DNA from: Thermoproteota archaeon
GTDB lineage: Archaea; Asgardarchaeota; Jordiarchaeia; Jordiarchaeales; Freyrarchaeaceae
Length of the DNA: 64,000 nt
Direction of reading: 5' to 3'
Assembly: GCA_029258835.1 (NCBI GenBank)
Contig: JAPDJY010000006.1
Coordinates: 1 to 64,000 of the forward strand
The translations under genes and the position numbers were made by a program. Positions 24,681 through 64,000 of the stretch are shown here, in pieces. The notes beneath the pieces were generated by a model. It ran no database searches. It was not told the DNA's origin and saw nothing but the letters and a program-made list of their open reading frames with translations. Position 1 is the stretch's first letter. Every line of letters begins with the position of its first letter.

Positions 24681-25562
24681 TTATAGCCCTAGCTCCTTCA
24701 GATAGATAAAGTGCTTCCCCAAGTTTCCTCCATAGTTTCCGGCTGTTATTTTGACTACGCCAGGCATTTCCATGGCTGCCTTTATTCCGTCCCTCATTGC
24801 TTGCTTTACGACGTCGAGTGTAGTTCCGTTTATCACAACCTCGTAAGCGCTTCCTACTCCTTCAGGTATTTCGCTGTCCTCAACTTGCTCCCTTAATGTT
24901 GGGCATAGTTTATGGTTCGTCGTAGCCTTCATGAACTTATACTTTAACGATCCAACTTTACTGCCGCTTCTGCATATTCCTCCAGGGAAGGGAAGTATCA
25001 CGTTGTCTATCTTCTGTATGGCTTCTACTGCTGCCTCGGTTGCTGCAAGTCCCTTCTCCCAGTCCTCAGCTAGCACCATGAAGTTTCCGCCAGCCACACC
25101 CTTCCTAACCCCCAGCTCCGCCTCCATCTTGAATATGCCTTCCATTACCGGTATCTCGTATATTGTCCTTCCAGCCAGCTCGCTCTTCCTCTGGAAGCCG
25201 TCGCCAAAGTACCTCATCTTCGCTCCGGTATCAAACTTCATTTCAGGATCTTCCATGGCATCAAACACTGCTGTCGTTGGACAGGTGAGAACACACTGCC
25301 CTATCCTGTTAAGTAGCACGTGGTCAAGGTTCTTCTTTGACGCGAAAAACATCACTATTACTCCTGGCCGTCCATCAGGAGTCTCCGATGATGGAACAAA
25401 CTTGTCTATTCCCGCTTCAGCGTCGCAGGCTATGGTTGAAGTTGCATACCCGGTAACCACGGACGCCGCTATCTTAGCCCACTTCTCACTAGCGGCAGTT
25501 ATTAGAACTCTCGCAGCCCAAAGGTTAAAAGCTTCAGCAAAAGTATCTTCTACTTCAACCAC
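24681..25562 (-). CDS. ftr: Formylmethanofuran:H4MPT formyltransferase
   Basis: EDTFAEAF, TPDGRPG, RIGQCVLTCPTT, SGSKVGS, AGNYGG. Confidence 0.97.
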   Translation of the reverse strand: MVEVEDTFAEAFNLWAARVLITAASEKWAKIAASVVTGYATSTIACDAEAGIDKFVPSSETPDGRPGVIVMFFASKKNLDHVLLNRIGQCVLTCPTTAVFDAMEDPEMKFDTGAKMRYFGDGFQRKSELAGRTIYEIPVMEGIFKMEAELGVRKGVAGGNFMVLAEDWEKGLAATEAAVEAIQKIDNVILPFPGGICRSGSKVGSLKYKFMKATTNHKLCPTLREQVEDSEIPEGVGSAYEVVINGTTLDVVKQAMRDGIKAAMEMPGVVKITAGNYGGNLGKHFIYLKELGL

Positions 25563-25746
25563 AAGTTTCCCCTCCTTTCCTAAGTGTGGAAAAACCCTTC
25601 AGAACCCATAAAAGATTCTTGCTCCTAACTTAAGAGGTTTACGTTCAACCATAATTAACCTTTAATCGTGTTCTATTAGGCAGAAACCTTTTTAGGCTGG
25701 GTGGTTAGATGAAGGAGTGCATAAAGCATGTTAAGGGTGAATTGTC

Positions 25747-26583
25747 TTGGAGGAAGTTGTTAAGATTGGTGTGGTTAAGACTGGCAACATTGGTACAGCT
25801 CCTCTTTTAGAGCTTTTGCTGGACGAGAGAGCTGATAGGAAGGACATCGACGTGAGGGTAGTAGGCTCTGGGGCTAAGCTTAACCCCGAGCAAGCAGAAG
25901 AAGTTGCTAGGAAAGTGCTCGAATTTAACCCTAACCTCGTACTTACTGTAAGCCCTAACGCCGCCCTTCCAGGACCAAGTAAGGTTAGGGAGGTACTGGC
26001 TGAAGCAGGTGTTCCAACGATAGTGATCTCCGATGCCCCTGGGAAGAAAGCTAAGGAAGATATCGAAGGAAAAGGTCAAGGGTACATTATTATAAACGCA
26101 GACGCTATGATCGGAGCAAGAAGAGAGTTCTTAGACCCCATTGAAATGGCACTCTTCAACGCTGACGTAATAAAAGTCTTAGCAATCACAGGAGCCCTCA
26201 CGGTGATATACCAAGAAATAGATAAAGTTATAGATGCGATAAAAAAAGGCGAACAGCCCACTCTGCCAAGAATAGTGGTTAATAAGAACGTGGCTGTTGA
26301 AGCCGCAAACTTCAGCAACCCGTATGCAAAAGCTAAGGCGATAGCAGCTTACGAGGCCGCATCCACAGTAGCAGACCTCAACGTTGAAGGCTGCTTCAAA
26401 GTTCAGGAATACGAAAAGTACGTTCCACTTGTTGCAGCCGCACATGAGCTGATGAGGCAAGCTGCTCTACTAGCTGACGAAGCAAGGGAACTGGAAAAGG
26501 CGGGCGACAGCGTCCTGAGAATGCCCCATAAAAAGTCAGGGGAAATAGTTTCAAAGCGCGCTTTAATATCGAAGCCCTCCTAA
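25747..26583 (+). CDS. mtd: F420-dependent methylene-H4MPT dehydrogenase
   Basis: GNIGT, LLDERADR, SPNAALPGP, MIGARREFLDP, AHELMR. Confidence 0.97.
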   Translation: MEEVVKIGVVKTGNIGTAPLLELLLDERADRKDIDVRVVGSGAKLNPEQAEEVARKVLEFNPNLVLTVSPNAALPGPSKVREVLAEAGVPTIVISDAPGKKAKEDIEGKGQGYIIINADAMIGARREFLDPIEMALFNADVIKVLAITGALTVIYQEIDKVIDAIKKGEQPTLPRIVVNKNVAVEAANFSNPYAKAKAIAAYEAASTVADLNVEGCFKVQEYEKYVPLVAAAHELMRQAALLADEARELEKAGDSVLRMPHKKSGEIVSKRALISKPS

Positions 26584-59980: not shown

Positions 59981-60496
59981 CTAAGAAGCCTCAACAGAAT
60001 ACACCAGAATCATACGGTAATCCTGGTTGAACGTTACAGCGTAGGGCATCGAAGTTTCATTGCCAAACTTGGGAACCATCCCGAAGCACTGGTCAACAAC
60101 CCTCCAACCGCTAGGCCAAACATTCTTGAGCAACATCGCTGAAACGATAAGGTATCCTTCTCCCTCAACGTTTAGCGTCGCAGTCGGGTTAAACCACTCC
60201 TGAAGCCACGTTGCGCCAGAGTAGTGCCAGCCAGTAGTTCCGTTACCTACAGTGAACGCAGCCTTAACGCCAGACGAATCCACAGCAATGAACACGAACA
60301 GGATTAAATCCCCACTTTCCTGAACGTAATACGCTGGAACCCTCAGCGACAGGCTGTAGCTTGAGCAAGCCCTCGCTTGTCTTTCTCCATTCACGCTCAC
60401 CGGGGGTGCTAAGGCAAAGCCGGCAATAGATGGCGCCATTGCGACGAGTACCATTGAAACGAGCAAAAGGGCGGTAAACACCTTTAACTTCAACAT
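59981..60496 (-). CDS. Hypothetical secreted or membrane-anchored protein
   Basis: Signal-peptide-like N-terminus (KLK plus hydrophobic stretch); GGAGG RBS. Confidence 0.65.
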   Translation of the reverse strand: MLKLKVFTALLLVSMVLVAMAPSIAGFALAPPVSVNGERQARACSSYSLSLRVPAYYVQESGDLILFVFIAVDSSGVKAAFTVGNGTTGWHYSGATWLQEWFNPTATLNVEGEGYLIVSAMLLKNVWPSGWRVVDQCFGMVPKFGNETSMPYAVTFNQDYRMILVYSVEAS

Positions 60497-60644
60497 TCAG
60501 CCCTCCACTTTGCACCTCTCCAGAAAACAAAGCTACACCATAATATAACTTTAACGTAACTTCCAGATTTTCTTTCCTCATAAGGGGTATGAAGGCACGC
60601 AATCCCACATTTTGGTTTTGAAGTGGGTGTTACCCCCCTGCTGG

Positions 60645-60696
60645 GGGTGGTCCCCACCTCCACCAGCAGTTTAGGGAGGTGGTTCAGCCCTCACCC
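60645..60696 (-). promoter_or_regulatory. Eukaryote-like SECIS element overlapping the vhuU stop codon
   Basis: Helix I GGGUG/CACCC; core UGAA/GGAC (tandem G.A pairs); helix II CCACCUCC(CU)/(GG)uGGAGGUGG; unpaired AAA 11 nt after the core UGA. Confidence 0.75.
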
Positions 60697-60833
60697 AATA
60701 CTACCTCTTTCTCGGCAACTTTCCTGCCCTTGTGGTCCACCACGATTAGATGTGCTGAGCATGCCAGTCAGCAGTCATAGGCTCTCATAACCATCTCGAT
60801 CAGGTTCAGAAGCTTGGGGTCAACGTCCACCAT
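60684..60833 (-). CDS. vhuU: Selenocysteine-containing hydrogenase subunit VhuU (Sec UGA at 60768-60770)
   Basis: MVDVDPKLLNLIEMVMRAYDC-U-LACSAH-LIVVDHKGRKVAEKEVVLGEG; GGAGG RBS; supplies the C-terminal Ni-binding motif missing from vhuA. Confidence 0.92.
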
Positions 60834-60885
60834 TAATCAATCCCTCCACAACTTTTCATCCAAATTGGGAAAACCCTTATGCGTC

Positions 60886-62214
60886 CTACTTAAACCATGG
60901 TTCTGGAAACTTTAACTTCTCGTGTATTTTATCCTCGAATATCTGCTTCGCTGTAACTAGCATCGACTTCTCCACTGCTGCGATGTTATTGTTTGTTGCC
61001 ACGATCAGGTTCGCCTTCTTTATCACTCCCTCGTCATCCGTCCAGTAGTTGTAGATGAGCGTCCCTCTGGGGGCCTCAACGATCGCTACCCCCACGCCCT
61101 CCTTCGGAGTCACCGTTTCAAGCTTAACGTCGGCACTAACTATTTCAGGATCCTCTAGCAGCTTCTTAGCTTTTTCAACAGCCTGAACCAGCTCGATTAT
61201 CCTAGCCCAGTTGTAGGCAAGAGTTGCATGGCATGGTCTCCCAACAGTGTCCCTGAACTCCTTAAGGAGCTCCTGGGCTTTCGGCGTCTCCATCCTGTCG
61301 GCAACGTTGATCCTCGCCAGTGGACCTGCACGCCATATTCCGTCAGGGTAGCCGGCAGGCTTAAAGAAGATGTGCGTAGCGTACGAGTGAGGGGCGACAC
61401 GCTCTCCGGCGTACTTGAGGTAGTCCCCCTTCGGGAAGTCCGCTGCAACCTTACCGTCAGGGTCCATGACTCTAACCGTCGCCTTGGGATCATAGATTGT
61501 GTGAACTCCCTCAACGTTCAAGCCAATGTAATATGTGGGCACAACTCCGAGCTTCGTGATCACGTCAAGGTATCCTTCAACGATCTTCCTCGTCACTTCA
61601 ACGGTGAAATCAGCCAGTTCCTCGCCCTCATTGACCAGTTTAAGCAGCTCATCCCTTTCCTCCTCGGTTAACCGTTTAGCCATTCCTCCCGGAATCCCCG
61701 TGACAGGGTGGACAGAGCGGCCGCCCACATACCTGCAGATCGTCTGACCAACACGCATAAGAGCTATAGCCTTCTTAGCAGCGTCAGGCATGTTCTTGAT
61801 TATCCCAACAAGGTTCCTTACGGATGGATCGGCGAATGGACCAGCCAGAAAGTCTGGTGCGGCTAGAGCATAAAAGTGCAGTGCATGACTTGAAATCTGC
61901 TTACCCTGCATTAAAAGGTCTCTAAGCTTCACCGCTGCAGAGGGTGGAGTAACATCCCATGCAGCCTCAACAGCCTCTAAGCTGCATACGTGATGGGGCT
62001 CAGGGCATATCCCACAGATCCTCGGAGTCAGCCGTGGAGCCTGCTCTGCGAGACGCCCTTCAAGAAACTTCTCAAACATGCGTGTGAGAGTGATGCTAAA
62101 CATCAGGTCGTCCACTTCGCCCCTCTCGTTCAGCTTAAGAACTATTTTCGCATGACCCTCAAGCCTCGTCGCAGGCTCAATAACAATAGTCCTTTCCTCA
62201 CCCATTTTCCCCAC
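60886..62214 (-). CDS. vhuA: F420-non-reducing [NiFeSe] hydrogenase large subunit, N-terminal part
   Basis: TRLEGH, RICGICPEPH, EAPRGTL, IVAT; ends without DPCxxCxxH. Confidence 0.93.
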   Translation of the reverse strand: MGKMGEERTIVIEPATRLEGHAKIVLKLNERGEVDDLMFSITLTRMFEKFLEGRLAEQAPRLTPRICGICPEPHHVCSLEAVEAAWDVTPPSAAVKLRDLLMQGKQISSHALHFYALAAPDFLAGPFADPSVRNLVGIIKNMPDAAKKAIALMRVGQTICRYVGGRSVHPVTGIPGGMAKRLTEEERDELLKLVNEGEELADFTVEVTRKIVEGYLDVITKLGVVPTYYIGLNVEGVHTIYDPKATVRVMDPDGKVAADFPKGDYLKYAGERVAPHSYATHIFFKPAGYPDGIWRAGPLARINVADRMETPKAQELLKEFRDTVGRPCHATLAYNWARIIELVQAVEKAKKLLEDPEIVSADVKLETVTPKEGVGVAIVEAPRGTLIYNYWTDDEGVIKKANLIVATNNNIAAVEKSMLVTAKQIFEDKIHEKLKFPEPWFK

Positions 62215-63129
62215 CTACTTCCTCCTGTCAGTTACCGCCCTCGGTATTATCGCTGATGGAAGAGTAAACCTGCTGAACGTGCCGACAACATCCTTAACAG
62301 CCTTAACAAGCTCCTCAGGACTGACCGACTCGTAATCCACAATCGACGCCAGCGCGCTAAGCATCTTAGCCCCCTGATCCAACACGTTAGGCCCGGGACC
62401 CATACACCCCTTGCAAGGGACCCCCGCAGACGGACACACCGCGCCGCACCCCGCCCTAGTCGCAGGACCCATGCAGATGTACCCTTGCTCCAGCAGGCAC
62501 TTCTCAGGGTCAGGTATGCCCTCAAAGTCCCTCTTAATCTTCTTAACAACCACAACGTCCGATTTAACACGTGGACACTCGTCGCAAAGGGTTCTCTCCT
62601 TAAGCTTCGGCATCTCTCCTTTAAGGAGGCTAGTTAAAACCTCCGCTATCAGCTTAGGCTCAGGAGGACACCCCGGCACTAACAAGTCATACTTGACGAT
62701 GGACGGATTCGGCTTCACGTAGTCAAGCATCTTGGGAACCACCCTGTCGGGTATCCTCCCATCAACTACGCTCTCAGCCTCCATGAACTTACGCCTCAAA
62801 GCCTCATCGATAGGGTAGAGGTTCAGAAGCGCCGGAAGCCCCCCGAAAGTGGAGCATGCACCATAAGAAACCAGCATTTTACACTTCTGACGTGCAAGCT
62901 TCAACAAGTGAACATCCTCTTCCGTCCTGCAGAAACCCTCTGTGAGGCCAAGATCCACCGAGCCGTCGGGGAGCCCCTCAAGATCCTTAAACTTATAATC
63001 CACGACAGTATGCCAAAAAACTATGTCAAGCTGCGGGATCACATCGAGCAACGCCTCATGCAAGTCTAATAGACTCTGCCAACAACCCCAACAGCTACTG
63101 AGCTGAATGAATGCTACCTTAACTGGCAT
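62215..63129 (-). CDS. mvhG: F420-non-reducing hydrogenase small subunit
   Basis: SSCWGC, GAC, PGCPP, CDECP, CLL.QG.ICMGP.T.AGC...C....PC.GC. Confidence 0.93.
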   Translation of the reverse strand: MPVKVAFIQLSSCWGCWQSLLDLHEALLDVIPQLDIVFWHTVVDYKFKDLEGLPDGSVDLGLTEGFCRTEEDVHLLKLARQKCKMLVSYGACSTFGGLPALLNLYPIDEALRRKFMEAESVVDGRIPDRVVPKMLDYVKPNPSIVKYDLLVPGCPPEPKLIAEVLTSLLKGEMPKLKERTLCDECPRVKSDVVVVKKIKRDFEGIPDPEKCLLEQGYICMGPATRAGCGAVCPSAGVPCKGCMGPGPNVLDQGAKMLSALASIVDYESVSPEELVKAVKDVVGTFSRFTLPSAIIPRAVTDRRK

Positions 63130-63142
63130 GTTAAAACCTCCA

Positions 63143-63559
63143 TTATCCTTTTCGAAGCGGGCTTGGCCCAAGCTCCTTAAGTTTTTTAACAAATTCTTCG
63201 ACTGCGTTTACGAGCTCTGCCCCCTCGCTTGCCGATATCCATTTAAGCATTAACCTGTCGGGGTTTAAGCCTAGCTGATGTAGCATCGCCCTTAAGAGGG
63301 CGATCCTGCGTTCAGCACGGTAATTTCCTCTGACGTAGTGGCAATCTCCGGGATGGCAGCCGGCAACTAGGACGCCGTCGGCGCCCAGCTCGAAGGCTTT
63401 CAGGACGAATTGGGGGTCGACTCTGCCGCTGCATAAAACTCTGATGATTCTGATGTTTGGCGGGTACTGCATCCGGCTCGTGCCGGCCATGTCGGCTCCT
63501 GCGTAACTGCACCAGTTACAGAAGATGCCTAGGATCTTGGGTTCGAAGCCGTCGCTCAT
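63143..63559 (-). CDS. mvhD: Hydrogenase [2Fe-2S] subunit MvhD/VhuD, all-cysteine form
   Basis: FCNWCSYAGAD, CSGRV, GCHPGDCHY, WISASEG. Confidence 0.95.
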   Translation of the reverse strand: MSDGFEPKILGIFCNWCSYAGADMAGTSRMQYPPNIRIIRVLCSGRVDPQFVLKAFELGADGVLVAGCHPGDCHYVRGNYRAERRIALLRAMLHQLGLNPDRLMLKWISASEGAELVNAVEEFVKKLKELGPSPLRKG

Positions 63560-63882
63560 TTCCATCATCTCCTTCATATAGTGAGGGGATGGTAAAGGTA
63601 AAAACTCGTATTTCACGAGCTTCTTTCCTTATTTTAAAGTTTCGGGAGAGGCTGCGTGTCACCCTTTAAGGCTGAAGCCATAGGTGGCTGCCATGTTTCT
63701 TAGGTCGTTGAGGTGGGGAACGGTGGAACATGTTTTTTCAACTTTGTTGCGAGACGTCGGCTCGGAGGGATTCTGGGCTTTCAGCGGAAAAGATAAATAT
63801 TTTTAGTAGTCTTAAGTTGGTTGCGTTAGGGGGGCTCCCCCCGCAGCTGCATGGTTACTTTAAAGCTTGAAGGAGGCTCTTT

Positions 63883-64000
63883 ATGGGTGAGAAGGTGGGC
63901 GAGGAACCGCGGGTAGGCGTTTTCATATGTCATTGCGGCACCAACATTGCCGGCGTAATAGATGTTGAGGAACTGGTCAGGTATGCTTCGAAGCTTCCCG
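63883..64000 (+). CDS. hdrA: Heterodisulfide reductase subunit A, N-terminus (partial)
   Basis: MGEKVGEEPRVGVFICHCGTNIAGVIDVEELVRYASKLP; GGAGG RBS. Confidence 0.92.
   Translation, partial: MGEKVGEEPRVGVFICHCGTNIAGVIDVEELVRYASKLP

Follow-up and report, generated by a model that had tools for sequence, protein, structure and literature searches.

VhuU of a Jordarchaeia genome: a split [NiFeSe] hydrogenase large subunit with a predicted selenocysteine beside a clade-wide cysteine

Background

In Methanococcales the large subunit of the Vhu hydrogenase (Methanococcus voltae Vhu; solved structures 9sfi and 9t1s) consists of two polypeptides, VhuA and VhuU. VhuU is a small subunit of about 50 codons in which selenocysteine (Sec) is the first ligand and which carries a C-terminal extension. 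Among Asgard archaea, VhuU was described in Lokiarchaeota as a selenoprotein of ~50 amino acids (aa) (PMC4989117) and in Freya- and Atabeyarchaeia as the 'small subunit (~50 aa) of NiFeSec (VhuU)' (PMC11291895); the FrhA/MvhA/VhuU family is present in 68% of the Sec-using Asgard genomes (PMC11227280). The first description of Jordarchaeia mentioned as selenoproteins only HdrA, Prx and MvhD (PMC9723677). Here we describe a vhuA-vhuU gene pair in the metagenome-assembled genome (MAG) of an archaeon of this group. The window, i.e. the whole stretch of DNA analysed, comprises the first 64,000 nucleotides of contig JAPDJY010000006.1 (C5). The MAG measures 2.72 Mb in 91 contigs and is 94.7% complete. 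Among genome records, those nearest to it are Candidatus Jordarchaeum and Jordarchaeia MAGs, at 82-85% identity; Freyarchaeota come next.

With high confidence we propose that the enzyme encoded here is a Vhu-type [NiFeSe] hydrogenase of group 3c, with a large subunit produced as two separate chains, the second of which would contain Sec encoded by UGA. The initial annotation of the window called VhuU a hidden selenoprotein, a view that had to be given up in the light of the three publications on Asgard VhuU cited above: both the split and the Sec are known in Asgard archaea, and the Jordarchaeia copy is a new member of the family.

Results and discussion

The split large subunit

The following features make up the locus (coordinates are those of the window):

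60886..62214, minus strand: vhuA, [NiFeSe] hydrogenase large subunit, ending before the C-terminal Ni motif (PF00374, 96.7 bits).
60834..60885, minus strand: intergenic spacer of 52 nt with a Shine-Dalgarno-like GGAGG at 60843-60847, read from the sequence.
60684..60833, minus strand: vhuU, predicted 49-codon selenoprotein gene, ...RAYD-C-U-LACSAH plus a 21-aa tail (translation, alignment to solved chains, orthologues).
60768..60770, minus strand: UGA, predicted Sec codon at the first Cys of D-P-C-x-x-C-x-x-H (alignment; the contigs of runs X5, X6, X8 and X11 agree).
60771..60773, minus strand: TGC, the Cys adjoining Sec, at the Pro position of canonical enzymes (translation and alignment; 25/25 Asgard VhuU).
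60651..60687, minus strand: predicted Sec insertion sequence (SECIS), Loki-type (eukaryote-like, type I), from a motif scan of 25 loci and the consensus fold of 18 sequences.
60634..60647, minus strand: second small hairpin CCCCC-AGCA-GGGGG, 3' of the SECIS (18/18 aligned loci).

The vhuA open reading frame (ORF) can be read from an ATG at 62205 (439 aa) or from a GTG at 62214 (442 aa) and terminates in a TAG (60886-60888). The N-terminal R-I-C-G-I-C motif is present; the C-terminal D-P-C-x-x-C-x-x-H is absent. The best solved relative was the split 418-aa VhuA of 9sfi (chain 9sfi_g, 'alpha subunit'; 467 bits), with query residues 7-423 aligned to residues 4-417 of the chain. Of the 473 aa of MvhA only residues 5-412 were matched, confirming, together with the coordinates, that the large subunit ends before its second Ni-binding motif as the initial annotation had stated. 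The unsplit MvhA (group 3c [NiFe], 5odc_F) agrees with the Jordarchaeia enzyme in fold and Ni motifs, but is a single chain with Cys instead of Sec and D-P-C as its motif. VhuA ends in ...KLKFPEPWFK followed by the stop, a tail that is kept among relatives as ...L-K-L-P-E-P-x-x-K plus stop.

The vhuU gene lies in a different reading frame from vhuA. It starts with the ATG at 60833 and continues through 21 residues, the in-frame TGA and a further 27 residues to a TGA stop codon at 60684-60686. Its 49 sense codons correspond to 28 residues up to and including the His and a tail of 21 residues. All numbers given earlier for this part (the gap of 52 nt, a ribosome-binding site of its own, the 49-codon ORF and RAYDC-UGA-LACSAH with 21 aa behind it) were reproduced. 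Residues 3-32 of VhuU match the C-terminal part of MvhA (residues 422-451 or 423-452), and the peptide also aligns to the solved 27-aa VhuU chain 9sfi_M, which reads ...Y-D-P-X-Y-S-C-A-A-H. In this alignment the TGA falls on the first Cys/Sec ligand and the Cys before it on the canonical Pro. The solved chains and the 25 orthologues described below bear out the VhuA/VhuU split with the predicted Sec at a Ni-ligand position.

Contigs of four public runs (three DNA, one metatranscriptome) were letter-identical at 60768-60770: a TGC or TGT was looked for there and none was found, all four carrying TGA. Since the codon is present in these contigs and in 25 Asgard genomes, it is not a sequencing error. 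The contig from the RNA library (60717-60963) reaches from the end of vhuA across the spacer into the first part of vhuU, without a splice joint.

The split site is the same as in Methanococcales, where the operon also includes D and G subunits, as here. The motifs differ (D-P-U-Y-S-C in Methanococcales, D-C-U-L-A-C here). The conserved VhuU tail looks like extensions that are known to be cleaved and is similar to those of FrhA and methanococcal VhuU; the genome contains two HycI-family protease genes. To judge by its sequence, the conserved tail may fit a recognition role during maturation.

Conservation of VhuU in Asgard archaea

A six-frame search of 60 relatives detected the small vhuU ORF, each time with one TGA, in another 24 genomes (25 in all), from six families of the phylum. 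The frame D-C-TGA-[L/I]-x-C-x-A-H followed by the conserved tail was present in all 25, and the orthologue alignment that the initial annotation had suggested thus gave D-C-TGA as common to every genome. In each of the 24 relatives with a readable junction, a conserved VhuA tail was followed by a stop, a spacer of 12-68 nt, a GGAGG/GAGG-like site and a conserved Met start. Because both the frame beyond the TGA and this pattern of VhuA end, spacer and Met are conserved in relatives, a pseudogene could be ruled out.

An exhaustive protein search with VhuU returned 11 matches, a low number due to gene callers stopping at the TGA. Among these were the variants D-C-W (TGA read as Trp), D-P-W and D-C-C. 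In one relative (locus L055, G017:C49) the vhuU copy has a TAA seven codons past the His, with the remainder of the tail and the SECIS about 50 nt later. Either the tail is shortened in this copy, or the genome has an error or an insert there.

The SECIS element

The SECIS starts 84 nt downstream of the Sec UGA. Its core is CUGA, in which the UGA is the vhuU stop codon itself, and the closing GA is at 60651-60652. Positions 60675-60683 pair with 60653-60661 in a stem of 8 Watson-Crick pairs and one A/G mismatch; the apical loop of 13 nt contains AAA. From its sequence, the UGA...GA core is predicted to be of the kink-turn type. A stop codon can belong to the SECIS core in Lokiarchaeota as well (PMC4989117). 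According to the published definition, type I eSECIS-like elements have 5'-GA...[G/A]A-3', a stem of 7-15 bp with ≤2 mismatches and a loop of 8-20 nt (PMC11227280), and the vhuU element falls within it.

Across the 18 orthologues, all 7 SECIS stem pairs examined showed changes on both sides: the sequence of the stem had changed wholly and the pairing was kept. In the consensus fold as a whole 9 of 11 pairs had compensatory changes. Folded as a single sequence, the SECIS region was not significantly more stable than shuffles (z = -1.66), and the support for the element therefore comes from covariation and not from folding energy.

The family, the size of ~50 aa, the single Sec and the lokiSECIS or type I eSECIS-like element are shared between published Asgard VhuU (PMC4989117, PMC11291895, PMC11227280) and the Jordarchaeia copy, which differs in its core (CUGA, not AUGA) and loop (13 nt, not 11). 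Here a C precedes the UGA; Freyarchaeia-like copies have U or C at this place, and most others A. In published models the methanococcal SECIS is of the GAA_A-bulge type, unlike the kink-turn element (UGA...GA) that overlaps the stop codon here. The second hairpin follows 3-4 nt past the SECIS and has a G-C-A-rich (A/G-C-A) loop in 18/18 loci, with covariation at one of its four pairs. It is absent from the published SECIS models examined, and there is no T-run after it.

Selenocysteine machinery

The initial annotation had proposed to look for the Sec machinery, and SepSecS, SelB, a PSTK-like gene, SelD and an intron-bearing tRNA-Sec were all found in the genome. SepSecS (TIGR03531, 485 bits) and SelB (TIGR00475, 297 bits) scored above their cut-offs. 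SelD (TIGR00476, 218 bits) is encoded at C82:1217-2251, minus strand, and has a TGA of its own at G-U-S-C-K (C82:2222-2224). The tRNA gene is located as follows:

C13:12407-12558, plus strand: tRNA-Sec (UCA), found by BLAST from a Freyarchaeia-like relative and called by ARAGORN after in-silico intron removal.

In this gene the acceptor stem measures 9 nt, the anticodon is UCA, the variable arm is long, and the G-CCA end is encoded. Three inserts, in the D-loop (~17 nt), at position 37/38 (24 nt) and in the T-arm (18 nt), interrupt the gene; these are putative introns with inferred boundaries. After their removal in silico, ARAGORN called a full-length tRNA-SeC(tca). The three insertions explain why standard tools missed the gene. 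ARAGORN, run on the genome with and without intron mode, called no tRNA-Sec, and Rfam model RF01852 returned from the genome only a tRNA-Met at 31 bits, the unspliced tRNA-Sec gene remaining below threshold. An Rfam E-value scan of C13:1-16000 yielded nothing, and a search by regular expression and stem missed the gene too. The lead came from a weak Rfam match with a CUUCAAA anticodon loop in the complete genome of a Freyarchaeia-like relative, from which BLAST led to the gene. A Freyarchaeia-like relative (L081) also has this tRNA-Sec gene, with inserts of other lengths. A 'tRNA-???' with a four-base anticodon on contig C14 was rejected as tRNA-Sec; it is a tRNA with a non-canonical intron. 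The tRNA-Sec gene and selB are on opposite strands with about 11.4 kb between them, a proximity that resembles the pairing of tRNA-Sec and EFsec in Lokiarchaeota (PMC4989117).

Many tRNAs of the genome have non-canonical introns, and inserts were also observed in protein genes. The conserved S-D-V-Y/A-M-G motif of selD is interrupted by 30 nt that include an internal stem and a TAA (C82:1973-1975); from its sequence this insert looks like a tRNA-type mini-intron in an mRNA. In the gene for aIF2-gamma (C27:~25527-26153, minus strand), the G-H-V-D-H-G-K-T P-loop contains 30 inserted nt, a TGA among them.

Base call, conservation, machinery and SECIS agree, and the UGA at 60768-60770 is accordingly predicted to be read as Sec.

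The Cys-Sec pair

D-C-U was found in 25/25 Asgard VhuU, with variation at the neighbouring positions. Methanococcal VhuU has D-P-U (9sfi_M, P0009), and the unsplit Asgard homologues have D-P-C. The Cys was described in the initial annotation as an unusual replacement of a near-invariant Pro. This holds against Methanococcales; within Asgard VhuU the Cys is not odd at all, being invariant. D-C-U is thus a variant at the level of the clade and gives no ground for placing the gene outside the Vhu family. It is also retained in the rare Sec-to-Cys variants, which read D-C-C and look degenerate: one has Phe for the His and lacks an upstream large subunit, another has a changed spacing. The former is an orphan vhuU-like ORF in a Freyarchaeia-like genome (L075:2268-2417, plus strand; G008:C227) that reads D-C-C-L-S-C-S-A-F, without an upstream large-subunit gene; this D-C-C form is the cluster representative P0003 in the protein library.

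A second Cys was noted in VhuA. Cys157 (61735-61737, minus strand), five residues before G-G-R-x-x-H-P, is present in 21/23 Asgard split VhuA; methanococcal VhuA and MvhA have Val at this position, the unsplit Asgard homologues Glu or Gln.

The invariance of the Cys before Sec argues for selection, and the residue appears to have been fixed and kept by selection throughout Asgard VhuU. As to its role, our preferred guess, held with low confidence, is that of a redox-protective or proton-relay partner of Sec. The Cys might also play a part in maturation, or, as the initial annotation suggested, allow a selenenylsulfide or an extra ligand. Adjacent Cys and Sec are also found in the Gly-Cys-Sec-Gly C-terminus of mammalian thioredoxin reductase, where they form a reversible selenenylsulfide. 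The comparison is an analogy only: thioredoxin reductase is an unrelated protein in which the dyad does not serve as a metal ligand and belongs to a flexible C-terminus. It is a speculative and rather improbable idea that the Cys-Sec dyad and VhuA Cys157 together give an active-site chemistry unlike that of Methanococcales or sulfate reducers, either with a reversible selenenylsulfide 'safety catch' that would shield the Ni-bound Sec upon oxidation or with an extra thiol acting as proton relay or ligand.

No paper discussing a Cys-Sec dyad in hydrogenases came up in a literature search, and in the searchable texts the Cys before Sec is unmentioned; a 2026 review gives the motif only as UxxC (PMC13188914). 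The clade-wide D-C-U, apparently unremarked so far, is the only new point of the present analysis.

Alternative explanations

If the TGA were a true stop, the large subunit would be decaying or non-catalytic, with Ni ligands lost, and the 49-codon ORF would be a reading artefact. Standard gene callers do end at this TGA, vhuU itself ends in the same codon, and a Pfam scan of the VhuU peptide matched no family. An artefact does not account for L-x-C-x-A-H and the tail standing in frame in 25 genomes of six families, for a covarying SECIS after every copy, or for the Sec machinery and other UGA-containing genes in the genome, and we regard a true stop as extremely improbable. It is also very improbable that vhuA and vhuU are one gene with a tRNA-type (bulge-helix-bulge) intron, the splicing of which would yield an unsplit subunit. 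The ~30-nt inserts with stop codons in conserved motifs of SelD and aIF2-gamma make such introns worth considering in this genome. However, the VhuA tail, stop, 12-68 nt spacer, GGAGG-like site and Met start recur in 24/24 relatives, the methanococcal homologue is two-chain in the solved structures (418 aa and 27 aa), and contigs from the RNA library show the junction unspliced and without a joint. For the Cys beside Sec, it is quite conceivable, at somewhat less than even chances, that the residue has no redox or ligand role: the exchange of Pro for Cys would have been tolerated and become fixed in the Asgard Vhu ancestor. Asn and Leu occur at this position in other split small subunits of the Cys type, which means that Pro is not obligatory. 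Yet a neutral site would be expected to drift, and the Cys is found in 25/25 sequences despite variable neighbours and is kept even in D-C-C variants.

Several observations weigh against a two-chain selenoenzyme encoded at this locus. The first base of the SECIS core is C where A is usual. The contig from the RNA library is compatible with DNA carry-over and hence is no proof of transcription. As for the machinery, the SelB gene is broken by the end of contig C13, the PSTK-like protein has full-length coverage with a score of 149 against a curated cut-off of 290 bits, and tRNA-Sec is seen by ARAGORN only with three inferred introns removed. At the protein level, Se incorporation, tail cleavage and complex formation are predictions from sequence.

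Proposed mechanism

Given a two-chain [NiFeSe] enzyme, VhuA would contribute the N-terminal Cys pair and VhuU the C-terminal pair, Sec22 and Cys25. The UGA would be decoded by SelB/EFSec and tRNA-Sec, directed by the kink-turn SECIS at the vhuU stop. By comparison with Methanococcus Vhu and [NiFe] maturation, VhuU would then join VhuA to make up the whole Ni-Fe site, in which Sec22 would be the terminal ligand and Cys25 the bridging one. After metal insertion, the 21-residue tail would be cut behind His28 by one of the HycI-family proteases, as in homologous systems. Together with the divergently encoded HdrA and with MvhD, the enzyme would probably form an electron-bifurcating or -confurcating Hdr-Mvh complex.

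Operon and neighbouring genes

The vhuA and vhuU genes belong to the operon mvhD-mvhG-vhuA-vhuU and form its 3' end. The neighbouring features are:

63143..63616, minus strand: mvhD (FlpD/MvhD family), all-Cys, first operon gene (PF02662, 190 bits, profile positions 1-123 of 123, in-frame stop absent).
62215..63192, minus strand: hydrogenase small subunit, MvhG/VhuG type (PF01058 Oxidored_q6, 71 bits).
63883..64000, plus strand: 5' end of hdrA, divergent (ORF list; Pfam Fer4 and Pyr_redox_2/FAD domains).

The true start of the small subunit is probably downstream of the listed TTG. With no TGA and full coverage of the FlpD profile, the MvhD next to the hydrogenase is the all-Cys form it had been taken for. 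There are 7 FlpD-type domains in the genome, and two VhuD paralogues (on C31 and C7) have two TGAs each. The genome thus has Cys and Sec versions of VhuD, and the copy adjoining vhuA/vhuU is the Cys version. The whole hdrA encodes 658 aa, is TGA-free and extends beyond the window to C5:65859. In contrast to the hdrA-vhuD tandem of published Asgard loci, the adjoining MvhD and HdrA are Cys forms here and the genes are divergent. Just downstream of vhuU an ORF of 171 aa (59981-60496, minus strand) and beyond hdrA an ORF of 1024 aa (L076:5831-8905, plus strand) were without Pfam match.

Conclusions

Because the family and its SECIS have already been published, the main value of the present analysis is correct annotation. 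In Jordarchaeia, standard annotation cuts short the catalytic subunit of an enzyme central to energy metabolism, and without VhuU the Mvh/Vhu hydrogenase would be scored as missing two of its four Ni ligands. Beyond annotation, the Cys in place of Pro before the predicted Ni-binding Sec is a clean, clade-wide active-site difference among the Asgard VhuU examined.

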